Program-made: the position numbers and the translations under genes
The notes under the pieces: generated by a model
Databases searched by the model: none
The model's input: the letters and a program-made list of their open reading frames with translations, nothing else
Told to the model about the DNA's origin: nothing
Shown here: piece by piece, positions 27,726 through 63,541 of the stretch
How positions within the stretch are numbered: the first letter of the stretch is position 1
Layout: each line of letters opens with the position of its first letter
Virus record (IMG/VR): IMGVR_UViG_3300015214_000024
Span: 137,787-201,786 of that record
Length of the DNA: 64,000 nt
Reading direction: 5' to 3' (one strand)
Origin: a virus
Lineage: Duplodnaviria > Heunggongvirae > Uroviricota > Caudoviricetes

Positions 27726-27800
27726 TCCGATTTGGTCCAGGTGGATGGGCACAGGATTCTAAACCCTAGGAGACCGGTTCGATCCCGGTAATCGGAGCCA
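27726..27800 (+). tRNA. Amber suppressor-type tRNA (anticodon CTA)
   Basis: TCCGATT/AATCGGA-G-CCA acceptor, loop TTCTAAA, ACCGG-TTCGATC-CCGGT T arm; anticodon stem has 2 mismatches. Confidence 0.75.
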
Positions 27801-29857: not shown

Positions 29858-31309
29858 ATGAATATTAAAGATTATTTTGCACCTAAGAGCACTGACGTTG
29901 AATACGTCCAGGAAGATCAGCTCAAAATTTCCCTCATTTGCCGAATTGATAGTTACAAATTCAGTCACCCGTTTGCTTACCCTAAAGGTATTCAGGCAAT
30001 GACTTCATATGGTGAAGCCCGAATTAAGGGTTCTGAAATTGTTGTTCCTTTTGGTATGCAGCTTCTTGTCAAGCGCTACCTTAGCGAAACTATTACTGCT
30101 GAAGATGTTGAAGCAGCCGAAGCTTTCGCACTCGCACACTTTGGACGCCCACTCTTCCATAAAGAAGGTTGGATGAAGGTTGTTAATGTTTACAATGGTA
30201 AACTTCCCCTTATTATTCGAGCAGTCAAGGAAGGCACTGTAATGCACGGTAGCCAGCCCATCTACACTGTCACGGTGTTTGATGAAGATCTTTACTGGAT
30301 GAGTGCTGGTTTTGAAACTATGATCCAGCGCGGCATTTGGTATCCTACTACTATTGCTACTTTTGATTATGTCACTAAGCAAGAAATCATCAAGCGATAC
30401 AAAGCAACTGGTGCAAATCTTGACTTAGTACCGTTTGCACTTCACGACTTCGGTGGCCGCGGTGTTTCGAGTGGTGAAACTGCTGAAATCGGCGGCGCTG
30501 CCCACTTGGTTAATTTTATGGGCTCGGACACAGTTGAAGGTATTCTTACTGCCAATTTCTACTACAAATGCGATATGGCCGGCTTCTCGGTTTATGCAAC
30601 TGAGCATAGCATTCAGTGTTCGTTTGGCCCAACTCGAGATAATGCAATTGATTATCTTCGCACACAGATCCGCAATGCAACTCCTGGCTCAATTTTCAGC
30701 GTTGTTATTGATGGATATGATGTCTTCCGAGAAGCTGAAATCCTTTGCACTGAATTGAAGGACGAAATCATCGCATCAGGAGCCAAGGTTGTGTTCCGCC
30801 CAGATAGTGGTGATATGATGGAGATTGTTCCTGCACTTCTCAAAATGCAGGAAGACCATTTTGGTGTTACGCTCACCGAAACTGGACACAAGCGTATTAA
30901 TTACGTTGGTATGATTCAAGGTGATGGTATCTCACATACTACACTTATTGAGCTCCTTGATAAGGTAATTGAGCTTGGCTACAGCGCCGACGTTATTATA
31001 TTCGGTTCAGGTGGAGCATTGCTCCAAAAAGTTAACCGTGATACACTCAAGTTTGCACAAAAGGCTTGTTCAATTCTTATTGACGGCGAATGGAAAGGTA
31101 TTGCTAAGGATCCTATCACTGATCAGGGTAAGAAGTCAAAAGAAGGTATTTTGACCCTCGCCCGCAACCTTGCCACTGGAGAACTCGAAACCCTCCGCAT
31201 TGATGATGGTTTCCCTGAAGGTTACGAGGACGCGCATTTCCTTGTTTACTACCTCGGTAAGCTCTTTAATGAAATCACACTTGCAGAAGTTCGTGAAAAC
31301 GCTGCATAA
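29858..31309 (+). CDS. Nicotinamide phosphoribosyltransferase (Nampt/NadV)
   Basis: DSYKFSH, WYPTT.AT, LHDFGGRG, ATEHS, RPDSGD, QGDG, FGSGGALLQ..NRD. Confidence 0.95.
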   Translation: MNIKDYFAPKSTDVEYVQEDQLKISLICRIDSYKFSHPFAYPKGIQAMTSYGEARIKGSEIVVPFGMQLLVKRYLSETITAEDVEAAEAFALAHFGRPLFHKEGWMKVVNVYNGKLPLIIRAVKEGTVMHGSQPIYTVTVFDEDLYWMSAGFETMIQRGIWYPTTIATFDYVTKQEIIKRYKATGANLDLVPFALHDFGGRGVSSGETAEIGGAAHLVNFMGSDTVEGILTANFYYKCDMAGFSVYATEHSIQCSFGPTRDNAIDYLRTQIRNATPGSIFSVVIDGYDVFREAEILCTELKDEIIASGAKVVFRPDSGDMMEIVPALLKMQEDHFGVTLTETGHKRINYVGMIQGDGISHTTLIELLDKVIELGYSADVIIFGSGGALLQKVNRDTLKFAQKACSILIDGEWKGIAKDPITDQGKKSKEGILTLARNLATGELETLRIDDGFPEGYEDAHFLVYYLGKLFNEITLAEVRENAA

Positions 31310-40965: not shown

Positions 40966-41020
40966 ATGACACGAACTACTAGCTGACCATCCAGCAAATC
41001 ACTAGGATTGTTGGATGGTC
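40966..41020 (+). promoter_or_regulatory. Thr-rich leader peptide MTRTTS (40966..40986) and overlapping hairpin upstream of ThrRS
   Basis: AAGGAG SD, ATG ACA CGA ACT ACT AGC TGA; GACCATCCAGCAAATC/GATTGTTGGATGGTC stem. Confidence 0.7.
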
Positions 41021-41058
41021 GTATTCAACATTTTCTAACGTGATTTAATAGGAGATCA

Positions 41059-42243
41059 GTGATGTTATACGATCATCGTAAAATTGGCCGAGAAATGGGC
41101 CTATTTCATATTCAAGAAGACGCCGCAGGCTCAGTATTTTGGCACCCACGCGGCTATGCACTTTACCGTAATATTGAAAATTATATTCGAATGAAACAAC
41201 TTCAGTATGGCTATGACGAAGTCAAAAGTCCACAACTGTATGATGTTTCACTTTGGAAAAAGAGTGGTCATTGGGATCACTTCAAGGAAAATATGTATTC
41301 TATTGAGGATTCAAATTTCTCCTTGAAACCTATGAATTGTCCAGGCCACATTCAAATCTTCAATTCTGACCTAATTTCTTATAAACAACTACCTTTGCGG
41401 CTGGCTGAATTTGGTTGTTGCCATCGTAATGAGCCATCTGGTGCATTACACGGTATAATGCGTGTCCGACAGTTTGTCCAAGATGACGCTCATATTTTTT
41501 GTATGGAAAACCAGATTCAATCAGAAGCATTAGCATTTTGTAAAATGCTTCAGGAAGTTTATGATGATTTTGGATTTAAAAATATCAAAGTAGCCTTAAG
41601 TCTGAGACCGGATGACCGTGCTGGCAATGACGCTGATTGGGATTTGGCCGAACAGGCATTAGAGGAAGCCATCAAGCAGGCCGGGTTTGAATACATTCTC
41701 CAGCCAGGTGAAGGTGCATTTTACGGTCCTAAATTGGAATTTGCACTAATCGACCAAGGCGGCCGTGAATGGCAATGTGGTACCATACAATTAGACTTTG
41801 TTTTGGCTGGACGACTTGGGGCAAAATATGTTGCTCAAGATGGTAGCCAAAAAGTGCCAGTTATTTTACACCGTGCAGTATTGGGTTCATTAGAACGATT
41901 TATTGGTATTCTTTTAGAGCATTATGGTAAGGATTTACCAGTATGGCTATTAAAAGACCAATTTGCTGTTTTGCCAATCAAGCCATCAGTCAATGATTAC
42001 GCTTGCAATGTGAAAGAAGCTGTGCTACAATTTGGCTTTAATGCAGAATTGGATTCTGATGATATTTCTCTTGGTGACAAGATTAAAAAATATTATCATA
42101 TTCCCAATCTCATTATTATCGGAGACCGTGAGGCTAAAAACGGCCAAGTTGTTTGGCGAAAACTTGATGGTTCACAGGAAGTTATTGATTTACATATTTT
42201 TTATGAAAAAGTGAAAAATGTGAAAAATCCGTTGAAAAAGTAA
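41059..42243 (+). CDS. thrS: Threonyl-tRNA synthetase, minimal (lacks N-terminal TGS/editing domains)
   Basis: Starts at DHRKIG; KPMNCPGH, HRNE.SG.L.G..RVR.F.QDDAH, FYGPK, WQCGT.QLDF, HRA..GS.ERF. Confidence 0.95.
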   Translation: MMLYDHRKIGREMGLFHIQEDAAGSVFWHPRGYALYRNIENYIRMKQLQYGYDEVKSPQLYDVSLWKKSGHWDHFKENMYSIEDSNFSLKPMNCPGHIQIFNSDLISYKQLPLRLAEFGCCHRNEPSGALHGIMRVRQFVQDDAHIFCMENQIQSEALAFCKMLQEVYDDFGFKNIKVALSLRPDDRAGNDADWDLAEQALEEAIKQAGFEYILQPGEGAFYGPKLEFALIDQGGREWQCGTIQLDFVLAGRLGAKYVAQDGSQKVPVILHRAVLGSLERFIGILLEHYGKDLPVWLLKDQFAVLPIKPSVNDYACNVKEAVLQFGFNAELDSDDISLGDKIKKYYHIPNLIIIGDREAKNGQVVWRKLDGSQEVIDLHIFYEKVKNVKNPLKK

Positions 42244-42316: not shown

Positions 42317-42382
42317 ATGTCACATTCAGTTTATCATTATGAATATGAGCGTGAATATCTCCGTCCAGGGGAGAGTTGGTAA
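42317..42382 (+). CDS. Attenuator leader peptide MSHSVYHYEYEREYLRPGESW (His/Tyr/Glu-rich)
   Basis: AGGAAAG upstream; 10 of 21 residues are H/Y/E; followed by a terminator and His/Tyr/Glu tRNAs. Confidence 0.8.
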   Translation: MSHSVYHYEYEREYLRPGESW

Positions 42383-42415
42383 CGAGTATTTAAAATACTT
42401 CGACTGAACCGATTC

Positions 42416-42445
42416 AACCCTGGGACTGAAATCCCAGGGTTTTTT
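42416..42445 (+). terminator. Attenuator terminator of cluster 1
   Basis: AACCCTGGGA-ctgaaa-TCCCAGGGTT-TTTT; TCCAGGG (42364) in the leader can sequester the 5' arm. Confidence 0.88.
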
Positions 42446-45309: not shown

Positions 45310-45380
45310 GCTGCTATCGTATAAAGGTATAATACACCACGATTAATCAGGAGATGCAGTTTCAAAGGCTGCTGGCGGCA
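45310..45380 (+). ncRNA. tRNA-like RNA with a shortened anticodon arm
   Basis: GCTGCTA/TGGCGGC acceptor and D arm present; anticodon arm 15 nt; degenerate T loop. Confidence 0.55.
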
Positions 45381-45387
45381 CCTATGA

Positions 45388-45472
45388 GTCAAAACTACTA
45401 AAGACGAATGGTAGAGTCAGCCCGCTCTTATACGGGATAATAGCTGGTTCGATTCCAGTTAGTAGTTTTGGC
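45388..45472 (+). ncRNA. tRNA-like RNA with extended acceptor stem and 8-nt anticodon loop
   Basis: GTCAAAACTACTA/TAGTAGTTTTGGC; CCCG-CTCTTATA-CGGG; GCTGG-TTCGATT-CCAGT. Confidence 0.6.
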
Positions 45473-45480
45473 CATACAAT

Positions 45481-45581
45481 GGGCCAATAGTGTATGACGA
45501 AACGCTAATTAATTAGTAAAGTAGGCGGTGAGCACGGGCTTCATACAGGGTCTAGGATGGGTTCGATCCCCATTTGGTCCA
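45481..45581 (+). ncRNA. tRNA-like RNA with D-loop insertion, anticodon unclear
   Basis: GGGCCAA/TTGGTCC; ATGGG-TTCGATC-CCCAT. Confidence 0.55.
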
Positions 45582-45619
45582 CACGTTGACAAACTTAATC
45601 AAATTCGCTATGTTGCATC

Positions 45620-45717
45620 TATGAGCCAGGCGGCGGGAGTAGAACAGTGGTACTTCACCTCCATCCCAGGAGGAGATTGTAGGTTCGATTCCTACCTTGC
45701 CGCCCGTCCTGGCCATA
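45620..45717 (+). ncRNA. tRNA-like RNA with 6-nt anticodon loop and paired flanks
   Basis: CGGCGGG/CTTGCCG; CCTCC-ATCCCA-GGAGG; GTAGG-TTCGATT-CCTAC; flanks GCCAGG/CCTGGC. Confidence 0.6.
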
Positions 45718-48763: not shown

Positions 48764-49385
48764 ATGCTACGTGGTACACGTTTGATTGAGGGCAAGGAAG
48801 CTCAAACATTTAATGAAGTAATTGATACCTTTCGGAGGTTAGTTCATCCAGTCTGATTTCGAAGAAATCATTGTTCCCAGTATTTGGGAACAAGAAACCT
48901 TTTTGGCCAAAACTGGCCCAGAACTATCTAAACAAATGTGGACCTTTAAGGATAAAGGTGATCGAGACGTTTGTTTGATTCCTGAAGTTACCGGTATTTT
49001 TCAAGAAACTTGGCGTGAAAAATGGTCCAAGTCAATGAAATTCCGTAAAGTGTTTTACGTACAACGCTGTTATAGGTATGAAAGGCCGCAAGCTGGCCGT
49101 TATCGTGAATTTACGCAATTGGGTATTGAAATCCTTGGTAACTATGATAATGGTGATCAAGAGGCTCAAGATTTGTTGAAAGCTGGTCTTGACGCAATTG
49201 GTGTAGAGTATGAATTTGATTCAACCGCGACACGTGGTCTCGGATACTACACTGAGCTTGGTTTTGAAGCTCGTTGCGAATCACTTGGTGCGCAAAAGCA
49301 AGTAGCAGGCGGCGGCCGTTATGCTGAAGGTGTTGGATGGGCTATTGGTGTTGACCGACTGGTTTTAGCTAAAATGAATAAATGA
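48764..49385 (+). CDS. hisS: Minimal histidyl-tRNA synthetase catalytic domain, needs a +1 frameshift near 48842-48856
   Basis: GGAGG SD + MLRGTR in frame 0 (TGA at 48854); +1 frame FEEIIVP, LIPEVT, YRYERPQAGRYREFTQLG.E, RGLGYYT, GGGRY, GWAIGVDRL. Confidence 0.85.
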
Positions 49386-53334: not shown

Positions 53335-53363
53335 TTGACTCCGGACTAAATACATTATATAAA
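53335..53363 (+). promoter_or_regulatory. Sigma70-like promoter of tRNA cluster 2
   Basis: TTGACT-17 nt-TATAAA with A tracts upstream; spacer CGGACTAAATA as at 42244. Confidence 0.72.
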
Positions 53364-53408
53364 GTATAAATAACTTTGTAGAAACTTTTATAGGAAAGTG
53401 AATTTAAA

Positions 53409-53495
53409 ATGTTAAACCTAGTACTCAATCCAGTTAATTTGTTAGGACTCAATCCTAATCAATTGCCTGTGGGTGACTCGGGGACAGCATTTTAA
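53409..53495 (+). CDS. Attenuator leader peptide MLNLVLNPVNLLGLNPNQLPVGDSGTAF (Leu/Asn/Pro-rich)
   Basis: AGGAAAG upstream; 15 of codons 2-20 are L/N/P; followed by a terminator and Leu/Asn/Pro tRNAs. Confidence 0.82.
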   Translation: MLNLVLNPVNLLGLNPNQLPVGDSGTAF

Positions 53496-53524
53496 AATCT
53501 AAATAAAAGATTTAAATGAAGGTT

Positions 53525-53557
53525 ACCCCGGGAAACGCAAGTTTACCCGGGTTTTTT
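53525..53557 (+). terminator. Attenuator terminator of cluster 2
   Basis: CCCGGGAAAC-gcaa-GTTTACCCGGG-TTTTTT; GGGTGACTCGGGG (53471) in the leader can pair with GTTACCCCGGG. Confidence 0.85.
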
Positions 53558-53567
53558 ATTGCTTACA

Positions 53568-53690
53568 AGAGTTTAGTTTAGAGTGTGGTGAAATGGTAAA
53601 CACGGGCGGCTAATAACCGCCCCCCACAGAGGAAACGAGCATTTAAATGAACGTTGCTGGTTCGAGTCCAGCCACTCAAAACTAAACTTT
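53568..53690 (+). ncRNA. tRNA-like RNA: loop CTAATAA (AAT), oversized variable region, extended acceptor, no CCA
   Basis: AGAGTTTAGTTT/AAACTAAACTTT flanks; GGCGG-CTAATAA-CCGCC; GCTGG-TTCGAGT-CCAGC. Confidence 0.65.
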
Positions 53691-53707
53691 TTGATTTGGA
53701 TTGAACA

Positions 53708-54238
53708 ATGATTGATATTGAACAATATATTCGTTTACCGTTAAATGAGCGCCAAGCACATTTGAAATTGGAAGAAAATTGTATTGTTCGTGGCGGCCCT
53801 AAAGATGGTGGTTTATCATCGTATTGTAAGGGTTTGATGGCTCATATATTGGATACGACAATACCATCTGGTATGAAGATACATATTTGTCACGCTTGCC
53901 ATAATAAACATTGTTCAAATCCAAAACATTTATATTGGGGTACTGCTAAAGAAAATGCTATTGACAACTATAATAACGGTGCTAAAACAGCCCGTGAACG
54001 TACAATAGAAAAATATGGCATTGAAAAGGCAAATGAAATTTTTAAATTAAATTCAACCTTGGCAGCGGCTAAAGGAGGAAGAAAAGGAAAAGGAAAACCA
54101 AAAAGTGATCATCATCGGTTAGCTTTATCAAATGCTGGTAAAGGAACTGTATGGTTTAACAACGGTTTTAAAAATTTAAAAATTAAGATAGGTGGTCAAA
54201 TTCCGGAAGGGTTTGTTCAAGGAATGATTAAAAAATAA
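53708..54238 (+). CDS. HNH-type homing endonuclease
   Basis: ICHACHNKHCSNPKHLYWGT.KEN..D; NUMOD-like tail. Confidence 0.82.
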   Translation: MIDIEQYIRLPLNERQAHLKLEENCIVRGGPKDGGLSSYCKGLMAHILDTTIPSGMKIHICHACHNKHCSNPKHLYWGTAKENAIDNYNNGAKTARERTIEKYGIEKANEIFKLNSTLAAAKGGRKGKGKPKSDHHRLALSNAGKGTVWFNNGFKNLKIKIGGQIPEGFVQGMIKK

Positions 54239-54243
54239 TATAT

Positions 54244-54325
54244 GGGGCTGTGGCTAATGCGAATGGTACAGCTAATAGTTTTAGAAACTATGCTTTTGAG
54301 AGTTCGAGTCTCTCCAGCCCTACCA
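54244..54325 (+). tRNA. tRNA-Leu(TAG), short variable region
   Basis: ATAGT-TTTAGAA-ACTAT; GGGGCTG/CAGCCCT-A-CCA. Confidence 0.82.
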
Positions 54326-54439
54326 GTTTAATTACTGATGCTATTTGACATTGTTGATTGATTTATGTTACTGGTAGGACCTAAAAGATCCTATCAGTGC
54401 CAGGAAGGTAACGGGTAGTGCTGACTACTTCCTGGATTT

Positions 54440-54513
54440 GCTCCTGTAGCCCAAATGGAAGAGGCGGCAGTTTCAAACACTGTACAGTGTGAGTTCGAGT
54501 CTCACCAGGAGCA
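54440..54513 (+). tRNA. tRNA-Leu(CAA), short variable region
   Basis: GCAGT-TTCAAAC-ACTGT; GCTCCTG/CAGGAGC-A. Confidence 0.82.
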
Positions 54514-54517
54514 CAAG

Positions 54518-54615
54518 ATGATGGTTTAGTCAGGGGTTAGCTCAATTGGTAGAGCACCTGGTCTGGAGCCAGGGGGTTGGGAGTTCAAGTCTCCTGCTCC
54601 TGACTAAACCATCAT
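54518..54615 (+). ncRNA. tRNA-Pro(TGG)-like RNA with a 13-bp acceptor extension, C33, no CCA
   Basis: ATGATGGTTTAGT/ACTAAACCATCAT; CCTGG-TCTGGAG-CCAGG. Confidence 0.7.
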
Positions 54616-54623
54616 ACTTAAAT

Positions 54624-54699
54624 GCGGTTGTGGGCAAAAGGTAAAGTCGGCAAACTTAAAATTTGTGTCATATTGTGGGTTCGAGTCCCACCTACCGCA
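54624..54699 (+). tRNA. tRNA-Leu(TAA), short variable region
   Basis: GCAAA-CTTAAAA-TTTGT; GTGGG-TTCGAGT-CCCAC. Confidence 0.8.
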
Positions 54700-54952
54700 C
54701 AAAAAGATGAAAAAGGCGTTGACAACGTTTTAACATCAAGTTAATATGCGAAACAAGAAACGTACTTAACAGTAAGTTTTTCGTTTAGTGGTATTTCTTT
54801 AATAGCCCTAATAGGCTGGGATTACGGAACGCTATGTTGAAGGACATAACTCGGAAATCCCCGTGTGAGGCGGTCATCCAAAGTGGTAGTCGAATTATGG
54901 TTGGAAGAAACGGAATGTAAGGACCACCGAAATGGTGCAAGGCCATTATAAC

Positions 54953-55027
54953 CGGGGATTAGCTCAGCCGGGTCAGAGCGCCTGCTTTGGGAGCAGGAAG
55001 TCGTAGGTTCGAATCCTACATTCCCGA
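54953..55027 (+). tRNA. tRNA-Pro(TGG)
   Basis: CCTGC-TTTGGGA-GCAGG; CGGGGAT/ATTCCCG-A. Confidence 0.9.
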
Positions 55028-55184
55028 CAATATTAAGCAATGCTGTCATTAAGTAGTAATATTTTTTGATAGGAAAGGCAGCCATTATGGCGGTAAGCTG
55101 GATATATCCATTAACTCAATCATTTGGGTGTGGAATAGCCCGAGCAGAAGTTGGGATCAGGTCCAACCGTTGTTTAATATTAAT

Positions 55185-55268
55185 GCCCTAGTGGTGAAAT
55201 TGGTAGACACACTAGATTTAGGTTCTAGCGCCAAAAGCGTGGGGGTTCGAGTCCCTCCTAGGGCACCA
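55185..55268 (+). tRNA. tRNA-Leu(TAG)
   Basis: CTAGA-TTTAGGT-TCTAG, long variable arm, CCA. Confidence 0.93.
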
Positions 55269-55272
55269 AAAG

Positions 55273-55935
55273 ATGGAGACGAGAATGGAAATTCTTAAAT
55301 TGAAGAATCCTTATCTAAATGGATTTAGTGATGAAAACGATCCAGTTGCTCTGCAATATTTAGATAAGCTGAAAGCGATTAAGGAAGCATTATCATCAGG
55401 CCGCCTCTATTGCCAATATATAGATGGCGATAGAAAAGGATCAATTGCAAAATTGATCCCAGATCCTGCCTATTCTCATATTGAGGATCGCGCGCCATCT
55501 ATTCGATATTCAAGTTCGCACTTTCAAAAAGGTCCTTGGTATCGATTTGAGAATGATATGTTTTTTATGATTGCGACTTGGAATGGCCGCAAGAATAAAG
55601 TTAAAGAAACTTGGTCATATTATAGTCAATTTGAATTTATTATTGGCGATGATATAGAAACTGTATGGCAAAAGTTTGATGCACAAACGGCTAAAGAAGA
55701 AGTACTCAAGAACCCCAATCAAAAGGATATTGATGGTAATGTTCTCAATGTCGGTGATGCAGTAATGTTTGTTAATGCACGTTATGGCTCACGAATGGTA
55801 CTTGAACGTGGCAGAATTAAAGAATTTAAAGTAGTGGTTGATTCGAAGAAAACTTCTATTTCAACTGTTATTGAGAATAGCGAAGGTGCTTTAAGTACAT
55901 TATCATATCCAGAAGATATGGTTTGTAAAATTTAA
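55273..55935 (+). CDS. Hypothetical phage protein
   Basis: 220-aa ORF between tRNAs; DIDGNVLNVGD.V motif. Confidence 0.65.
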   Translation: METRMEILKLKNPYLNGFSDENDPVALQYLDKLKAIKEALSSGRLYCQYIDGDRKGSIAKLIPDPAYSHIEDRAPSIRYSSSHFQKGPWYRFENDMFFMIATWNGRKNKVKETWSYYSQFEFIIGDDIETVWQKFDAQTAKEEVLKNPNQKDIDGNVLNVGDAVMFVNARYGSRMVLERGRIKEFKVVVDSKKTSISTVIENSEGALSTLSYPEDMVCKI

Positions 55936-55938
55936 AAT

Positions 55939-56024
55939 GCGGTTATGGTGGAATGGCAGACACACTATCTTGAGGGGGTAGCGAGAGAAATCTCATAAGG
56001 GTTCAAGTCCCTTTAACCGCACCA
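55939..56024 (+). tRNA. tRNA-Leu(GAG)
   Basis: CTATC-TTGAGGG-GGTAG, long variable arm, CCA. Confidence 0.92.
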
Positions 56025-56255
56025 AAAAGAACGTTGCGAGTAGCTATCGCATAGTTAGGCTGATATCCTGATGAAGAATCCAGTTAGCCCTGGAAAAACT
56101 ATCCCTGACTTGGAAAGCTGGTTGACATAACATATAATGTCACGTATTGGGATTTATACGATAAATTGAGCCGTGGAGGTGAGCGTTGATCTAGCTGATC
56201 TAAAGTAGGCTAGGGAGTGATCGGACCCGTGAAGCGGACAATTAAATCCCAACAT

Positions 56256-56332
56256 CTGGAAGTAGCGCAGCCTGGTAGCGTACCTCATTTGGAGTGAGGG
56301 GGTCGGAGGTTCAAATCCTCTCTTCCAGACCA
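56256..56332 (+). tRNA. tRNA-Pro(TGG)
   Basis: CCTCA-TTTGGAG-TGAGG; CTGGAAG/CTTCCAG-A-CCA. Confidence 0.92.
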
Positions 56333-56340
56333 ATTATTGT

Positions 56341-56455
56341 GCGGATGTAGCTTAATGGGTTGGTCGAGCTAGATAAGACCAAACTTAGTGGCCACTAAGT
56401 AAAGCGGCAGGTAGTTAACCTGGAGAAGGTGGTTCGATTCCATCCATCCGAGCCA
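56341..56455 (+). tRNA. tRNA-Asn(GTT)-like RNA with a ~40-nt two-hairpin D-loop insertion
   Basis: CGGATG/CATCCG, GCTT...AAGC D stem, CAGG-TAGTTAA-CCTG, ends GCCA. Confidence 0.7.
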
Positions 56456-56495
56456 AAAAGAAATTGAACATATTTTGTTTGTGTGGGTAAAAGCA

Positions 56496-56523
56496 TTGAC
56501 AACGTTAGTATTGCCTCTATAAT
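56496..56523 (+). promoter_or_regulatory. Consensus sigma70-like promoter inside cluster 2
   Basis: TTGACA-16 nt-TATAAT, embedded in a hairpin ACAACGT/ACGTTGT. Confidence 0.55.
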
Positions 56524-56590
56524 CTAGACGTTGTGTGGGTTCAAGTCCCTGAGGAGGCTTCAGCTTTTTAACAGCAAATATGTCAATCAT

Positions 56591-56667
56591 TCCCCTGGGG
56601 TCCTATCGGTAGGGACGCCTGACTGTTAATCAGGTTGCTGTAGGTTCGAATCCTACCAGGGGAGCCA
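56591..56667 (+). tRNA. tRNA-Asn(GTT)
   Basis: CCTGA-CTGTTAA-TCAGG; TCCCCTG/CAGGGGA-G-CCA. Confidence 0.93.
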
Positions 56668-56896
56668 ATTAGAAATTCAAACTAATGATTAATTAGGAAA
56701 CTTGCCAATGGGTCGACACAGACGCAAGGATAATTTTTAAAAATTAGGGAGATAGGAGAAGTCCTGGGCGGGCGCCAACCTTTATGGCTAGCCGGCGCGA
56801 ATATAGGGTTCAATTCCTTATAGTGGAAAACAAAGTCGTGTTTTTCATCCTTGGGCAGGGTAGGTTCAATTCCTCGCTTCTCTGAACGCAACATAT

Positions 56897-56973
56897 TCCC
56901 AATGGGCCCTATTGGCAGGGGCACGACGCTGTTAACGTCGACGCTGTAGGTTCGAATCCTACATTGGGAGCCA
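56897..56973 (+). tRNA. tRNA-Asn(GTT)
   Basis: CGACG-CTGTTAA-CGTCG; TCCCAAT/ATTGGGA-G-CCA. Confidence 0.93.
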
Positions 56974-56987
56974 ATTTGAGGTATGAT

Positions 56988-57410
56988 ATGAATTACAAAG
57001 GACATAAAGATAAAATTTATATTTGTGAAAATTGTTTTTCTGAAATAGCCTTCAAAGGCTATTCAAACAAGCACCGATTTTGTGATATGAAATGTGCTGG
57101 TGAATTTAAAGTTAAGGAAACTAAAGATAAAAATTTAAAATTATTCCTTCAAGGTAAATTAACGCGCAGGGATAGAATTTATGAAATATTAGTTGAACGC
57201 GATGGTAATTGCTGTTCTGTTTGTAAAATTACCGAATGGAATGGTAAAGAAATTCGTTTATGGGTTGACCATATTGACGGAAATGCTACCAATAATTCAC
57301 CGAATAATTTTAGACTGATTTGTCCAAATTGTGATTCACAAAGTGAAACTTTTGGAGCCAAGAATCGAGGCAATGGAAGAAAATCAAAAGGATTACCGCA
57401 ATATGGGTAA
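56988..57410 (+). CDS. HNH endonuclease
   Basis: CSVC..W, VDHIDGNATNN...NFRLICPNCDSQ. Confidence 0.88.
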   Translation: MNYKGHKDKIYICENCFSEIAFKGYSNKHRFCDMKCAGEFKVKETKDKNLKLFLQGKLTRRDRIYEILVERDGNCCSVCKITEWNGKEIRLWVDHIDGNATNNSPNNFRLICPNCDSQSETFGAKNRGNGRKSKGLPQYG

Positions 57411-57413
57411 TAT

Positions 57414-57488
57414 TCCGGAGTAACTCAATGGTAGAGTAACTGGCTGTTAACCAGTAAGTTGGGGGTTCGAGTCCCTCCTCCGGAGCCA
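57414..57488 (+). tRNA. tRNA-Asn(GTT)
   Basis: ACTGG-CTGTTAA-CCAGT; TCCGGAG/CTCCGGA-G-CCA. Confidence 0.93.
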
Positions 57489-57610
57489 TTAAAGTTTAGG
57501 CAAAAAGAGAAGGCGGTTAAATTCCGTCTAGGCGAGAGATCAAGGGCCCATTTATGGAGGTCTTGGCGAGAGAATATAGCATAATGTTAATGTGCTTTTT
57601 GTCTTACCAT

Positions 57611-57882
57611 TTTGGTATAGTGTAAAGGAAAAGTTCAGTAAGTTGCTGAAAAGTTTCTAATAAGCTTATCGGAGAATAGTGAAAGTATTAACAGTAGCAA
57701 ACGCAAAGGCTATAAAAACCGTGAGCTTGGGAAGGGCAAGACAGGCTGTTAATATGGAAACTGGGATTTGATAAGTGGATGATTAACTTAGTAAGTAGGT
57801 GAAAGGCTTAGTACGTGGTAGCACGCCGGCATAGCACTTGCGTTTTGGAGCCGGAAGTGAGGTTCGAGCCCTCTTACCAGAG
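57611..57882 (+). ncRNA. tRNA-Gln-like scaffold with a ~190-nt D-loop insertion and expanded anticodon loop
   Basis: TTTGGTA-TAGTGTAA ... GGTAGCAC-G-CCGGC-(19 nt ending TTTTGGA)-GCCGG, GAGG-TTCGAGC-CCTC, TACCAGA-G. Confidence 0.55.
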
Positions 57883-57892
57883 CTAATAGAAA

Positions 57893-58071
57893 TTATCCAT
57901 CGTCTAAACGTGGTACTAACGATAGGGAGTGATCACCTGACAATAGGTCGATTGAAAATTAGTATTGAAATCTACCAATCACGTGTAAGGTAGAAAGTAA
58001 AGAAATGTTTCTTTCAGTTAGGACGCCGCCCGTGGAGGGCGGAAATATCAGCACACTGATTGGATAAACCA
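57893..58071 (+). ncRNA. tRNA-like RNA with a ~110-nt D-loop insertion, loop CGTGGAG, reduced T loop, CCA end
   Basis: TTATCCA/TGGATAA-A-CCA; GTCT...GGAC; CCGCC-CGTGGAG-GGCGG. Confidence 0.55.
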
Positions 58072-58185
58072 ATGTGTAGCTTAATTGTTGAGGATTTATT
58101 TTCAACAATTAGTTCGTAAGAATGTTCACCGTATGGTGTAGGACGTTCGGGATATAATTGCGGGGAGGGGCATTATATCATTCAT

Positions 58186-58261
58186 CTAGATGTGGGAAAG
58201 TTGGTAATCCGCCTGTTTCGGGAACAGGAGACCGCCGGTTCGAGCCCGGCCCTCTAGACCA
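58186..58261 (+). tRNA. tRNA-Pro(CGG)
   Basis: CCTGT-TTCGGGA-ACAGG; GCCGG-TTCGAGC-CCGGC; CCA. Confidence 0.88.
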
Positions 58262-58325
58262 ATTCTTGACATAGCATTGAACTAATGCTATTAGATTTCT
58301 ATTAACAATTTAGCTCAGAAAGGAT

Positions 58326-59591
58326 ATGGCGATGTATGATCAGTATGTATGCGTAATGTTCCCGTATCCTAGTGGCGCTGGCCTGCATTTGGGTCATTAT
58401 TACAACTATGCTGTAATTGACTCATATGCTAGGTGGCAGCGTTTTAAAGGTCAGACGGTTTTTCAACCTTTTGGTTATGATGCTTTTGGCTTGCCTGCAG
58501 AAAACTATGCTCGCCAAATTGGCGGTGATCCTAGAACAATAACTAATCAAAATATTCAAAATTTCCGTAAACAAATGCGAAATATGAATACTTTGTATGA
58601 CGAACAGTTGGTTACTTGTGAAACTGATTACGTTAAGTGGACCCAATGGATCTTTAATGCTTTGAAAGATCGTGGATTAGCATACAAAGCTTGGGGTGAA
58701 GTAAATTGGTGTGAACAGTGCGGGACCGTGTTGGCTAATGAACAAGCGCAAAATGGCATTTGTGAACGCCACGGAACTCCTGTTGAAAAACGTCAAATGA
58801 ATCAGTGGTATTTCAAGATTACTGATTATACTGATCGATTGATTAAGAATTTGGACTGGATTGATTATCCGGAAGGGACTAAGAAGCAACAGCGCAAATG
58901 GTTGGAGGATCAGCAAGATTGGTGTGTCAGTCGTCAGCGTTCTTGGGGCTGTCCTATACCAATTGAAGGTGAAACTGACACCTTGGACACTTTTGTTGAC
59001 TCTTCATTTTATTTCTTGCGCTATTTGACTAAAAGTGAAGATGAGTTTTTGCCAGCTGATCAATACAAGCAAGTCGATCTGTATGTTGGTGGCCCAGAAC
59101 ACGCTTGTATGCATTTGATATATGCTCGTTTTATTCATATGGTTTTGTTTGATATGGGAATTGTTCCTGAAGAAGAGCCATTTAAGAAAGTTATTCATCA
59201 GGGTATGATTACCAAGGATGGGAACAAGATGAGCAAAAGTAAAGGTAATGCCGTTAGTCCTGATGACTATGATCCTGACGAATTGAGAATGTATTTGATG
59301 TTCTTGGGGCCATATTTTGAAGGTGGGGATTGGAGTGACCAGCATATTGTTGGTGTTCGCCGCTTCTTCAATAGGATGAAAACTTGGTTGGGAGAAGCTG
59401 GCACTGAAAATATTGACACTTCTCAGTTGGAAAATCAAATTGATCATTATGTTTCTACTTTCAAATTTAATAAAGTAGTTTCAAGTTTTATGGAATTTAT
59501 GAACAAAAATAAATCCAAAAAAGTTGATAATGAAACTCGAAATAAAATTGTCAGAATGTTGACTAATTTTGCCCCAGGGTTTCGAATTTAA
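58326..59591 (+). CDS. leuS: Minimal leucyl-tRNA synthetase (no CP1 editing or C-terminal domain)
   Basis: MFPYPSG.GLHLGH, GYDAFGLPAEN, TVLANEQ, DWCVSRQR.WG.PIP, DTLDTFVDSS.YF, GG.EHA..HL.YARF, KMSKSKGN. Confidence 0.93.
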   Translation: MAMYDQYVCVMFPYPSGAGLHLGHYYNYAVIDSYARWQRFKGQTVFQPFGYDAFGLPAENYARQIGGDPRTITNQNIQNFRKQMRNMNTLYDEQLVTCETDYVKWTQWIFNALKDRGLAYKAWGEVNWCEQCGTVLANEQAQNGICERHGTPVEKRQMNQWYFKITDYTDRLIKNLDWIDYPEGTKKQQRKWLEDQQDWCVSRQRSWGCPIPIEGETDTLDTFVDSSFYFLRYLTKSEDEFLPADQYKQVDLYVGGPEHACMHLIYARFIHMVLFDMGIVPEEEPFKKVIHQGMITKDGNKMSKSKGNAVSPDDYDPDELRMYLMFLGPYFEGGDWSDQHIVGVRRFFNRMKTWLGEAGTENIDTSQLENQIDHYVSTFKFNKVVSSFMEFMNKNKSKKVDNETRNKIVRMLTNFAPGFRI

Positions 59592-59770
59592 GTAGTTGAC
59601 AGTGAATAGATTGTTTGCTACTATGAATACATAAGCAGTTAAGCAGTTTTGGTCCACGGTGGTTCCAGCAAATGTTGGAGGGTAGATGGTTCGAATCCAT
59701 TTAAGAAAACCTGGGTTAGGTTTAAACCAAAAGAGCGTTCAAATCGCTCCGCCAAAAACCGTTTAATTAT

Positions 59771-59789
59771 TATGCCCACTTGGCGGAAT
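59771..59789 (+). repeat. 19-bp direct repeat of the 5' end of tRNA-Leu (second copy 60706..60724)
   Basis: TATGCCCACTTGGCGGAAT occurs twice, flanking an ORF and the HNH gene. Confidence 0.85.
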
Positions 59790-59795
59790 TTGAAT

Positions 59796-60035
59796 ATGAT
59801 AAACCTTGAAAATATTGTTGAATCTCTCAAAAGGCAATATCCTGAATATGATTATGAGATATTGAATAATAAGATTGGAATCTGGGATCCTCCTGGAAAC
59901 CATTATAAAGGAAGATACCATATACAAATTGCAGAATGTGAAATAACTGAAGACAAAAATTATGATCATAATTTTTGGATAGATTTTTTAGAAAAATGTA
60001 TCTTTATTCATAGAATGAATAAGTATAATTTTTAA
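59796..60035 (+). CDS. Hypothetical protein
   Basis: MINLEN start chosen because the upstream part of the ORF overlaps RNA-like sequence. Confidence 0.5.
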   Translation: MINLENIVESLKRQYPEYDYEILNNKIGIWDPPGNHYKGRYHIQIAECEITEDKNYDHNFWIDFLEKCIFIHRMNKYNF

Positions 60036-60078
60036 TTAAAATTTGCGTCAACTATAAATAAAGCTAAAAGGTAACTTT

Positions 60079-60705
60079 ATGCTTTGTGATTATGGTTGCG
60101 AACAGGAATCAAATTTTGTTCTTAAAAATGGTAAAAATTGTTGCGCAAAGAGTCAAAATTCATGTCCTGCAATAAGGGCTAAGACTGGGGCAACTGTTAA
60201 GCATCAATTTAAATCTGGCAGTAGAAAACGTCAACCATATGTTTATGCTGATTTGCCTGATGAAACAAAAGAGAGAATGAAATGGAACAAAGGAAAAGAA
60301 ATTGTTCCAAACGAAATTGTGTTTGCTGAAAATAGCAAATATGATAATGATGTGGTTAAAAAAAGAATTTTACAAAACAATCTTTTAGATTATAAATGTG
60401 CCGAATGTGAGTTGACAGAATGGCAAGGCAAAAGTATAGTGTTGGAGTTAGAACACTGCAACGGCGTTCGAAACGATCATAGGATTGAAAACTTAAAGTT
60501 TTTGTGTCCAAATTGCCACTCACAAACGGAAACGTTTAGAGGAAGAAACAAAAACACTGGAAAAGTTATTGTTACTGATGAAGAGTTGTTGACAGCGTTA
60601 AAGTCGACTGCTAATATAAGACAAGCTTTACAGAGTGTAGGACTTGCTGCTAAAGGCGGAAATTATGCTCGAGTTAAAGCTTTAAAATTAAAGTTTAATG
60701 TTTAA
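60079..60705 (+). CDS. HNH homing endonuclease
   Basis: CAEC..W, LELEHCNG..ND.R.ENL..LCPNCHSQT; TATAAATA upstream. Confidence 0.88.
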   Translation: MLCDYGCEQESNFVLKNGKNCCAKSQNSCPAIRAKTGATVKHQFKSGSRKRQPYVYADLPDETKERMKWNKGKEIVPNEIVFAENSKYDNDVVKKRILQNNLLDYKCAECELTEWQGKSIVLELEHCNGVRNDHRIENLKFLCPNCHSQTETFRGRNKNTGKVIVTDEELLTALKSTANIRQALQSVGLAAKGGNYARVKALKLKFNV

Positions 60706-60708
60706 TAT

Positions 60709-60864
60709 GCCCACTTGGCGGAATGGTAGACGCCAGGGACTTGTCGGAAAGAAACCTTAGGGTTTAGAACGCCACTTAGTATGGCGACGGTGCGAATCCG
60801 GAATCCGAAAGCTAAAATCCCTTGCCCTTTGGGCGTACCGGTTCGAGTCCGGTAGTGGGTACCA
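60709..60864 (+). tRNA. tRNA-Leu(TAA) interrupted by a 71-nt structured insert in the anticodon loop
   Basis: GCCCACT/AGTGGGT-A-CCA; AGGGA-CT[60742..60812]TAAAA-TCCCT; long variable arm. Confidence 0.82.
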
Positions 60865-61021
60865 AATGAGAAGTCGTATGGTTGGTTTCATACTACTTGA
60901 ATGATATAAATTGGGTTAACACAGTTTATATCAAACAAGCTGTCCCTGATAAGCCATATGTGGGAAGATAAGCTGCCCATTTGACTATGTAGCTTGAGTT
61001 ATTGTAAACGGAGATATAGTA

Positions 61022-61213
61022 ATGACTGCTGCTACTTTTGCTGGACTACTTGTTATTATGTATGTCCTTTTTGTAATTGGTAAAGTTCTTGAAAACTACT
61101 TGCCTCAGAAGCAGCCAAGTTATGTTAGTGGCGCTGGCGCACCGGAACCTTCAGCAGAGGCTAAGGAAGCTGCCCGTCGTTATAGAGAGCAGAACCTAAA
61201 TCCGTTTTATTGA
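61022..61213 (+). CDS. Small membrane protein
   Basis: GGAG SD, N-terminal TM helix. Confidence 0.6.
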   Translation: MTAATFAGLLVIMYVLFVIGKVLENYLPQKQPSYVSGAGAPEPSAEAKEAARRYREQNLNPFY

Positions 61214-61214
61214 T

Positions 61215-61379
61215 ATGAAAAATCAAGAACCAACGGATGAACAAATAAATGATTACTTGGTTGGTAATCCGCATGAAAGTTGGTTTACAGCCAGAGAGAA
61301 ATTAAGAGATAAAGCTTATTCAGAAGATCACAAGAAACCGGAAGGTATGACTTGGGGTGAATATTGGAAAAGCTTTTAA
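61215..61379 (+). CDS. Small hypothetical protein
   Basis: MKNQEPTDEQINDYL...WGEYWKSF* read directly from the sequence. Confidence 0.5.
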   Translation: MKNQEPTDEQINDYLVGNPHESWFTAREKLRDKAYSEDHKKPEGMTWGEYWKSF

Positions 61380-61495
61380 AAGTTCGCACTGCCCGATATG
61401 AGTAACACTGAAAAGTGAAAAACTCGGAATTACTTAGCCCAAACACTTTGGGATGCAAAGACGGTAAGGAAAAAGGAAGTGACGGTGCGAAACTT

Positions 61496-61582
61496 GCGGG
61501 TATGGCGGAATTGGTAGACGCGACTGACTCAAAATCAGTTTCCCGAAAGGGAGTGGGGGTTCGAGTCCCTCTACCCGCACCA
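61496..61582 (+). tRNA. tRNA-Leu(CAA)
   Basis: ACTGA-CTCAAAA-TCAGT, long variable arm, CCA. Confidence 0.93.
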
Positions 61583-61762
61583 AACTGGAAGGATTTAAAT
61601 CTTAGCAGTTTGACCTATTTGAATGCTATGTTAGATTAAACTGGCCTAAAGCTGCCAATCCTAACGGATCGTGGCATAGCAAACAAGTGGGACTGCTAAA
61701 CGTACTAAGCGGGATTGGAACATGTGCGTGACTTTGCTAAGTTTCAGAGTAAATTTAGCTAT

Positions 61763-61800
61763 TCTTCAGTGGTGGAACTGGTAAACACATTAGACTAAAT
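61763..61800 (+). pseudogene. Orphan 5' half of a Leu-type tRNA, truncated by the endonuclease gene
   Basis: TCTTCAG-TG-GTGGAACTGGTAAACAC-A-TTAGA-CT; no matching 3' half seen. Confidence 0.55.
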
Positions 61801-61805
61801 ACATT

Positions 61806-62384
61806 ATGAAGAATAATTGGAAAGAAATTCAGGAATATTACGACAAAGGTTTTAGTATTCGAGAATTGGTTGCACATTTTAAAATTTCGACTAAGTCAAT
61901 ACATCTCGCTAAAAAGCGTGGCGAGTTTGTGACCAGATCAAAATCAGAGAGTGCTTTATTAGTAAAGAAAAAATTTGGCCAGAAGGTATTGTCAAAATCC
62001 CATAAAGATAATATATCTAATGGTATGAGGGCGGCCCATAAAAATGGTAATGCTTGGAATATTGGCCAAAGTAGATGGAATAATGAACCAAGTTGGCCAG
62101 AACAATTTTTTATGAATGTGGTCGCAAATGAATTTGACGACAAGAATTATGAATATGAAAAACCATTTCATAAATTTAGTTTAGATTTTGTTTGGGAGCA
62201 TAAAAAGAAAGTAATAGAAATTGATGGTGAACAGCACGATCGCTGCTTTGAGCAACGTAGACGTGATGAGGAAAAAGATTCGTTACTCCATCAATATGGA
62301 TATGAAATTTTACGTATCAGGTGGAAAGATATGTTTAATGATCCAAAAGTTTATATTAAACTTGCAAAAGATTTTATAAACTAA
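61806..62384 (+). CDS. DUF559/Vsr-like homing endonuclease with NUMOD3-like segment
   Basis: PSWPE, FSLDF, IEIDGEQH, RD..KD..L...G..ILRI.W. Confidence 0.85.
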   Translation: MKNNWKEIQEYYDKGFSIRELVAHFKISTKSIHLAKKRGEFVTRSKSESALLVKKKFGQKVLSKSHKDNISNGMRAAHKNGNAWNIGQSRWNNEPSWPEQFFMNVVANEFDDKNYEYEKPFHKFSLDFVWEHKKKVIEIDGEQHDRCFEQRRRDEEKDSLLHQYGYEILRIRWKDMFNDPKVYIKLAKDFIN

Positions 62385-62387
62385 TAT

Positions 62388-62459
62388 TCCGATGTAGCTC
62401 AGCGGTAGAGTCGGTGACTGTTAATCACTTTGTCGGAGGTTCGAATCCTTCCATCGGAG
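62388..62459 (+). tRNA. tRNA-Asn(GTT)
   Basis: GGTGA-CTGTTAA-TCACT; TCCGATG/CATCGGA-G. Confidence 0.92.
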
Positions 62460-62475
62460 CAAAAAGGAAAATGGT

Positions 62476-62733
62476 ATGACTTGGATGATTTATCCAGATA
62501 ATATTCCAACAGAATCAGGTTATTATATGACTTTATATTATAATCCTGAACGTAATGAAGAGCTTTACAAAGCTCTTTGGTTTAGTGTTGATATTGGTAA
62601 ATGGACTGGACCTTGGCCTTGGAATTATGAATATGGGAAAGAATTTACGACCACTGATGGTCATAAAGCTCGTCCTATAATTTGGAAGGGTATTGATGTA
62701 AAGAAATATCAACCATTATCAAAAGCTCGATAA
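62476..62733 (+). CDS. Hypothetical protein
   Basis: AAGGA SD; W....P.ESGYY motif. Confidence 0.6.
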   Translation: MTWMIYPDNIPTESGYYMTLYYNPERNEELYKALWFSVDIGKWTGPWPWNYEYGKEFTTTDGHKARPIIWKGIDVKKYQPLSKAR

Positions 62734-62930
62734 TATACCCAATGTGTGTATATTGAAGGATAAAAGAAAAGATATCGGCACCTAGTTGGTCGCCGGCGTA
62801 CTATGTGAGCACAAAACCAAATAGGTATCAGATATTTGGCACAAAAGCGTCACACATAAGCGGTTTGGGAGGAGGTCCGCGGTCTTTTCAATTTTTCCAT
62901 AAATATCTAAAAGATTTGTGGAGATCAAAA

Positions 62931-63380
62931 ATGAAATTATTTGAAATAGATCAAATGAAACTTGCTGCTAAAATGCAAGCCATTATTGATGATCCGAACA
63001 CTAATGAAAATGTTAGAGCAGTAGCTAAATCAAAACTTCAACAGCTTATTGATAGTAAAGCTGGCCAAAACGTAACTTATGCTTATACTGATTTTGGTGC
63101 TACTCAAAAGATTAAAGATTACAATAAGGTTTTTATGGTAATTGATCGAACCGTAATAACTTTTAGAGATATGGTTGATTCCATTAGAAAAGTTAATACA
63201 ACTTTTGTTGATTTTGACAATGGGACAACTGATAGTAAATCACCATCAATTATACTTAAAGTCAAAGACGATGGCAATGATGTGAGTGATATAATAAAAA
63301 ATTCTATTAAATCATCTAAATTTACAGTGTCAACAGTTGACAAAATAGATGATAATATGTATAAAGCATATATACAGTGA
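62931..63380 (+). CDS. Hypothetical late protein
   Basis: ATAAATA motif, GGAG SD, MKLFE start. Confidence 0.6.
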   Translation: MKLFEIDQMKLAAKMQAIIDDPNTNENVRAVAKSKLQQLIDSKAGQNVTYAYTDFGATQKIKDYNKVFMVIDRTVITFRDMVDSIRKVNTTFVDFDNGTTDSKSPSIILKVKDDGNDVSDIIKNSIKSSKFTVSTVDKIDDNMYKAYIQ

Positions 63381-63464
63381 ATAGAAAATGTGGATTGAAC
63401 AATTTATTGCGTCCGTTTTAAAGTTAAGTGAACTTGAAGCGAAGATCATTTCTTATCCATAAAT

Positions 63465-63541
63465 CGGGGATTGGCCTAGTCTGGTAAGGCGCTTGCTTTG
63501 GGTGCAAGAGATCGCGAGTTCGAATCCCGCATCCCCGACCA
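63465..63541 (+). tRNA. tRNA-Pro(TGG)
   Basis: CTTGC-TTTGGGT-GCAAG; CGGGGAT/ATCCCCG-A-CCA. Confidence 0.93.

Follow-up and report, generated by a model that had tools for sequence, protein, structure and literature searches.

The purpose of phage-encoded tRNA genes has long been open, and the two main explanations, codon compensation on the one hand and defence against depletion of tRNA on the other, are rivals (PMC10264068). The locus described here raises the related question of whether such genes can be switched on by a shortage of the very tRNAs that they encode. It lies in a 64,000-nucleotide stretch of DNA, referred to throughout as the window, which is part (C1:137787-201786) of a single virus record of 455,147 bases. 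The record belongs to a jumbo phage whose tail sheath protein shares 50-54% identity with its counterparts in Sinorhizobium phage Phosso, in Agrobacterium phage Atu_ph07 and in PA5oct-like Pseudomonas phages. Sequencing runs that contain the whole stretch come from landfill metagenomes, a possible source of it. Within the window, a short open reading frame (ORF) rich in Leu, Asn and Pro codons, termed the leader, and an intrinsic terminator precede a block of Leu, Asn and Pro tRNA genes. From sequence comparison and RNA modelling, we assign a probability of roughly 0.85 to the reading that this unit is a classical ribosome-coupled transcription attenuator, with tRNA genes as its output and hence a feedback loop. 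The elements of the leader region are as follows.

53335-53363, plus strand: putative sigma70-like promoter of the leader (-35 box at 53335-53340, 17-nucleotide spacer, -10 box at 53358-53363 lacking its last T)
53347 and 53367, plus strand: T4-late-like TAAATA boxes in the sequence, overlapping the leader promoter
53392-53398, plus strand: Shine-Dalgarno-like AGGAAAG, 10 nucleotides 5′ of the start codon
53409-53495, plus strand: leader ORF of 28 sense codons, with codons 2-20 as its control tract
53403-53496, plus strand: leader hairpin (1:2, anti-antiterminator) from fold prediction, with an inner stem-loop at 53442-53458
53477-53532, plus strand: predicted antiterminator (2:3), in which 53477-53485 pairs with 53522-53532 around an enclosed A/U hairpin and sequesters the 5′ arm of the terminator
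53527-53557, plus strand: intrinsic terminator (3:4), with a stem-loop at 53527-53551 (10-base-pair stem, GNRA loop) and a T6 run at 53552-57

At the level of sequence, a short ORF with a ribosome-binding site is thus placed between a promoter and the first of the genes presumed to be regulated. As the original prediction had counted, the control tract contains seven Leu, five Asn and three Pro codons. These make up 15 of its 19 codons, where genome usage predicts 3.4 (binomial P=1e-8), and the whole leader, taken without selection of a tract, still gives 15 of 27 (P=1e-5). The Leu codons are TTA (two), TTG (two), CTC (two) and CTA (one). Downstream, the tRNA genes are only those for Leu (anticodons TAG, CAA, TAA and GAG), Asn (GTT) and Pro (TGG and CGG), so that tRNA calls agree with the anticodons first proposed, and the control codons are cognate to the function that would be regulated. 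Composition by itself is not unique, because among 3449 short ORFs in the genome there are nine in which any three residues fill at least 15 of codons 2-20. This count is what can be said for an ORF that arose by chance in A+T-rich spacer DNA and happens to stand before an ordinary terminator. What decides is the agreement with the downstream tRNAs, together with the terminator, and a chance origin has also to contend with the presence of four matched units in this genome, with orthologues and covariation, and with the geometry of the switch. The orthologue data have largely refuted it already, and we regard it as barely credible.

The three further units came from a blind genome scan for a short ORF plus terminator. 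It recovered the Leu/Asn/Pro unit and the following, each directly 5′ of a tRNA block.

42317-42445, plus strand: His/Tyr/Glu unit (leader 42317-42382, terminator 42418-42445), before His/Tyr/Glu tRNAs
C1:209726: mixed unit of 12 amino acids, before a mixed tRNA block
C1:300358, minus strand: Ser unit, before a Ser tRNA block

When each leader is compared with each block, the four-by-four matrix is diagonal. Cognate codons number 15/19 for Leu/Asn/Pro and 9/13, 27/27 and 7/10 for its sisters (each P<=3e-6), with no off-diagonal excess. Every one of the 12 amino acids of the mixed block is represented in its leader, from which Leu, Asn, Pro, His, Tyr, Ser and Cys are all missing, and the orthologue of this leader in L184 has undergone heavy turnover with the set of 12 unchanged. 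Jointly the four units account for 19 amino acids; the two Cys tRNAs lie apart and have no evident leader. The promoter layout is repeated before the sister leaders and in relatives, and both the AGGAAAG motif and its distance from the start codon recur in the His/Tyr/Glu and Ser units.

Other phages carry leaders whose content likewise tracks that of the block behind them: Arg/Leu/Ile/Lys/Trp in L057, Leu/Val/Cys in L004, and Ile/Thr/Val in L001 and L060. Phosso has a single 54-codon leader that uses 19 amino acids without Cys, before an array of the same 19 that is also Cys-less. The match is looser in Atu_ph07, where 24 of the 29 tract codons of a 42-codon leader are cognate to the counted tRNAs. 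Both of these leaders are annotated as hypothetical proteins. Leaders as broad as that of Phosso and the mixed leader of the present phage sample most amino acids, which is what a general sensor of translation speed or timing might do, with termination coupled to translation but codon content not sensed, and pairing within the leader RNA accounts for part of the codon conservation. Such a sensor is nevertheless improbable, since the leader-by-block match is strictly diagonal and leader content follows different blocks in unrelated phages.

The leader-plus-terminator arrangement was absent from the inspected stretches of phages Paride and RaK2 and of the distant LeuRS loci L002 and L006. A DNA search of cultured phages returned tRNA matches only, and scans with promoter and terminator patterns gave unrelated loci. 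In phage XacN1 (L199, AP018399), short ORFs at 30428 and 46104 start directly behind a TAAATA box; Lys and Tyr fill 7 of 12 codons before Lys/Tyr tRNAs in one case, and 34 of 40 codons match the eight following tRNAs in the other. No U-tract terminator was seen at either XacN1 ORF, so their output is possibly different.

Orthologues of the Leu/Asn/Pro unit were found in six further haplotypes (L183-L192, L195) that are 80-90% identical over 290-380 nucleotides. All six retain the promoter layout, start signal, frame, composition and terminator, and within the reach of their contigs the order of the tRNAs is unchanged. GGAAAG and the terminator stem are invariant in the seven haplotypes, window included, and the terminator loop is always GNRA. 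The sole indel within the leader ORF in the alignment is an in-frame duplication of 6 nucleotides in one haplotype, with indels of 1 nucleotide found only outside the ORF. In the inner leader stem a U-A pair becomes C-G in relatives, and the consensus fold has four pairs changed on both sides, in a set of seven related haplotypes that is too small for a formal covariation test. Both strands of the antiterminator also change jointly in relatives, with pairing kept. The original prediction had named a lack of codon-level conservation in relatives as a refutation; frame and composition are kept in the six haplotypes and the four Leu codons in 7/7. A metatranscriptome contig runs from 53385 to beyond the terminator; carry-over of DNA is possible, and we do not count it as evidence.

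Conservation of the ORF and the presence of a start signal would also be expected if the peptide itself were the product, whether as a small protein or as a nascent-chain arrest peptide, with the terminator merely ending the transcript. Against this, Leu, Asn, Pro and Val replace one another in the leader with the RNA pairings retained, and the sister leaders have no peptide motif in common. As to a conserved arrest motif of the TnaC, SecM or ErmCL type, the tail residues vary among haplotypes and the sister leaders show no common motif, in a set of sequences too small and too closely related to decide against one. We consider a peptide product very improbable.

On the attenuation reading, RNA polymerase would initiate 5′ of the leader with a ribosome trailing behind it. 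With ample charged Leu, Asn and Pro tRNAs, the ribosome would move beyond codon 20 and cover 53477-53485, and the terminator would form and stop transcription before the first tRNA. With these tRNAs absent or uncharged, the ribosome would lag in codons 2-20 and block the leader hairpin, leaving 53477-53485 free to pair with the 5′ arm of the terminator, and transcription would enter the Leu/Asn/Pro block. Read-through would then refill the pool that is sensed, as negative feedback. A leader that is not translated would fold on itself and cause termination. The phage would thus probably make Leu, Asn and Pro tRNAs mainly when ribosomes lack them.

In RNA modelling with a ribosome footprint that extends 13 nucleotides beyond the A-site, the terminator 5′ arm is sequestered with P=1.0 through codon 19, a value that drops to about 0.2 from codon 21 on; the control tract has its last Leu at codon 19 and its last Pro at codon 20. 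The modelled switch falls at codon 20/21 in the seven haplotypes (22/23 in L183), and the modelled boundary coincides with the end of the control tract in 7/7 units, comprising Leu/Asn/Pro, its three sisters, Phosso, Atu_ph07 and L057. Sequestration of the arm was as good in 1% of 500 shuffles and reached at least 0.9 in 11%. For the naked full transcript, the probability of the terminator is 0.95-1.0 in the seven haplotypes, the 5′ codons being predicted to pair with the antiterminator strand in the absence of translation. The predicted RNA has an intrinsic terminator ahead of the first gene (53527-53557), an antiterminator that excludes it and takes its 5′ strand from the distal leader, as predicted for all haplotypes, and a 1:2 hairpin that in the model, and with its four doubly changed pairs, would bring about termination without translation. 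In the model alone, a ribosome on the control codons allows the antiterminator and one past them blocks it.

The original prediction had proposed a pairing that overlaps the terminator 5′ arm, but in a register we rejected as the main antiterminator because the pairing of 53471-53477 is broken in L183-L188, whereas that of 53477-53485 with 53522-53532 is kept in relatives. A search for T-box riboswitches (stem I specifier loop, T-box bulge) gave no match at gathering or E<=5 thresholds. Conserved frame and composition, compensatory pairings, switch geometry, sister leaders and the leaders of other phages together strongly support the idea of an attenuator as first put forward.

Several observations weigh against this reading. 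At equilibrium the terminator still reaches 0.3-0.6 at most stall positions in the window sequence, and 0.6-1.0 in the stalled state for L186 and L188; with the terminator partly or largely formed in this way, read-through would need kinetic control. The -10 box of the leader is imperfect and the Shine-Dalgarno sequence lies 10 nucleotides away from the start. The promoter at 53335-53363 was not among the sites reported by the promoter scanner, and it is putative, judged on a sigma70-like pattern. With respect to codons, CCG occurs in no haplotype, even though those orthologous blocks that extend far enough do have tRNA-Pro(CGG), and with the amino acids fixed this leader covers 6 of 7 isoacceptor classes, which is chance level (P=0.60). 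Finally, conserved promoter-like sites inside the block could independently supply Leu(GAG), all of the Asn tRNAs and the LeuRS.

The codon evidence concerns how finely the attenuator might sense. The original prediction held that leader codons and downstream anticodons correspond one for one, and that sensing operates at the level of isoacceptors. For Leu the correspondence stands: TTA, TTG, CTA and CTC are kept in 7/7 haplotypes and CTG is found in none, even as codons shift among haplotypes (CTA from codon 4 to 8, TTA from codon 12 to 19) and CTT is added in three. By genome usage, all four Leu codons without CTG have a chance of 6-9% per independent draw, the haplotypes being related, and the exact Leu codon set arises in 2.4% of draws. 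Some of the Leu codon changes are tied to RNA pairing. The correspondence fails for Pro, where Pro(CGG) has no CCG to answer to it, and Asn would be read mostly by wobble, four of its five codons being AAT. Over ten leaders that are not fully independent, isoacceptor coverage is 90 versus 83.5 (P=0.017). We therefore rejected strict Watson-Crick matching as a general rule, coverage being at chance here and slightly raised over the ten. Amino-acid-level sensing is well supported by these comparisons and isoacceptor-level sensing is plausible for Leu only, with the leader probably sampling all four Leu isoacceptors.

How far control by the leader would extend depends on the organization of the block, which is as follows.

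53579-53680, plus strand: Leu-like tRNA-like RNA, the first gene after the terminator (Rfam tRNA, 44.5 bits; AAT in its loop)
53708-54238, plus strand: HNH-type ORF inside the block, with no counterpart in L192 or L195
54244-54700, plus strand: tRNA-Leu(TAG), Leu(CAA), Pro(TGG) and Leu(TAA), upstream of the first internal promoter-like site
54719-63541, plus strand: rest of the block, with more Pro, Leu (TAG, GAG, TAA, CAA) and Asn tRNAs from tRNA calls
58326-59591, plus strand: short LeuRS-like protein of 421 amino acids (Pfam tRNA-synt_1; best NCBIfam match leuS_bact, E=2.5e-118, below cut-off)

The internal promoter-like sites against which the original prediction cautioned are indeed present, at 54719, 56496 and 59596 by scanner and at 58266 by pattern. 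Those at 54719, 58266 and 59596 are conserved in relatives, and the site at 56496 has lost its -35 box in L192. The leader would consequently be the sole gate only for 53560-54700 (the first 1.2 kb), and its transcript may top up the rest of the block by read-through. The conserved sites at 54719, 58266 and 59596, together with a weak terminator-like hairpin at 56549-56563, could mean that a real attenuator gates nothing beyond that initial stretch, which has three Leu tRNAs and one Pro, with the Asn tRNAs, Leu(GAG) and LeuRS mainly on internal promoters. We think this unlikely, since every haplotype retains 4-5 Asn and 2-4 CTC codons in its leader, whose cognate tRNAs lie behind internal promoter-like sites; such codons are sensible only if read-through arrives there, which we take as a sign that it does. 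The leuS promoter-like site has an inverted repeat at 58273-58289, in the spacer that separates its -35 box from its -10 box; the repeat is altered yet still largely self-complementary in L056 and is a possible operator.

A small LeuRS-like gene does lie inside the cluster, where a mini-LeuRS had been proposed. The 421-amino-acid ORF is closest to leuS_bact and falls under its cut-off because it is short, being far shorter than bacterial LeuRS. Short LeuRS proteins form a large family of 1182 members (231-737 amino acids, E<=1e-100), of which the closest have about 420 amino acids. Two tRNAs with Leu anticodons, at 54440-54514 (CAA) and 54624-54700 (TAA), have short variable arms unlike those of ordinary bacterial tRNA-Leu, and their lengths are kept in relatives, by position; these are possibly substrates of the short phage LeuRS. 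L056 and L192 have an additional synthetase within the block, and the one in L056 passes the score cut-off for aspartate--tRNA(Asn) ligase. Just 5′ of the leader, L184 (3722-8628) and L192 (831-2135) carry extra ValRS-like, CysRS and MetRS genes, none of which is found there in the window.

Several RNAs of the block are unusual. The element at 53579-53680 is probably not a decoding tRNA, since its loop differs among relatives. ARAGORN called the gene at 54244 Ile(aat); its loop, and the call at the homologous position in L192 and L195, led us to assign it as Leu(TAG) instead. The anticodon loop of tRNA-Leu(TAA) at 60708-60864 is split by a 71-nucleotide insert and is uninterrupted in L056, and a 16-nucleotide copy of the 5′ end of this tRNA at about 59774 flanks two ORFs, one of them HNH-like; insert and copy suggest a mobile insertion. 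Enlarged or nested tRNA-like RNAs that ARAGORN and Rfam missed occur at 56341-56456, 56690-56895, 57500-57895 and 59630-59765, the last three being 74-96% conserved in relatives. Non-coding stretches at 54770-54950, 57900-58185, 61380-61495 and 61590-61800 are about 74-97% conserved in relatives and Rfam-negative, and are candidates for new structured RNAs.

Near the sister units, degenerate tRNA-like elements with anticodon loops of 6 or 8 nucleotides lie at the end of the His/Tyr/Glu block (45310-45705), and a partial HisRS-like ORF at 48903-49385 (160-186 amino acids) is found in relatives too. At 40966-41065, the ThrRS gene (41059-42243) is preceded by a strong hairpin and by an ORF of six codons, three of them for Thr. 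In an alternative fold the region around the ThrRS start is covered, making this a candidate Thr-sensing translational attenuator. tRNAs with CTA anticodons at 27726-27800 and C1:15281 are possible amber suppressors, and Phosso and XacN1 have such tRNAs as well.

If the Leu/Asn/Pro unit operates as one of four that divide 19 amino acids, its natural trigger has to be considered. Extra tRNA would cure a loss of tRNA and not a starvation for amino acids, and we infer that loss of tRNA through host defence, of the kind discussed in PMC10264068, is the more plausible trigger. Tentatively, and with less than even confidence, we propose a four-channel sensor of nearly the whole tRNA pool, resolving Leu to single isoacceptors, that would induce whichever block an anticodon nuclease or other defence had depleted, as a self-limiting counter-defence in several giant-phage lineages. 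A switch triggered by shortage favours on-demand replacement as the role of phage tRNAs and makes their purpose testable. Each leader would also be a ready reporter of the tRNAs that fail in infection, and leader-gated control would explain why the tRNA genes here are sorted by amino acid. As the design is present in the cultured phages Atu_ph07 and Phosso, it is testable now.

In the full-text literature, with subscription papers outside this scope, no paper was found on leader-peptide attenuation or demand-driven control of phage tRNA genes, and the terms 'attenuat' and 'leader' are absent from the papers on Atu_ph07, XacN1 and AP-J-162 and from a jumbo-phage review. Attenuation of this kind is textbook; nothing in the literature searched describes tRNA genes as its target or their division into regulons. 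Phage tRNAs are known as a counter-defence against host tRNA depletion (PMC10264068), a subject of two further papers as well (PMC11464382, PMC11555353). That work gives a reason for the selection of a device that refills a depleted tRNA pool, but PMC10264068 makes no mention of attenuation or leaders. Among amino-acid biosynthesis genes, leader-peptide attenuation is exemplified by pheL (PMC3082878). T-box riboswitches resemble the phage unit in sensing tRNA charging and switching between terminator and antiterminator (PMC11404447). Unlike it, they bind tRNA directly and require no translation, and the phage unit matches no T-box family.

In Escherichia coli, the pheM attenuator controls pheST, which encodes Phe-tRNA synthetase. 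It is similar in placing a leader peptide over a gene of the translation machinery, as the phage block includes a LeuRS-like gene, and differs in that the phage unit consists mainly of tRNA genes and concerns three amino acids. Multivalent attenuators of amino-acid biosynthesis operons in the same bacterium include ilvL of ilvGMEDA, thrL, leuL, hisL and trpL. These share with the phage unit a short leader with control codons, a leader hairpin, an antiterminator, an intrinsic terminator, a switch set by ribosome position and the sensing of several amino acids. In contrast, the phage units are encoded by a virus, four of them in parallel partition the tRNA set with internal promoter-like sites downstream, and what they would regulate, together with a synthetase, is tRNA, the sensed molecule itself.

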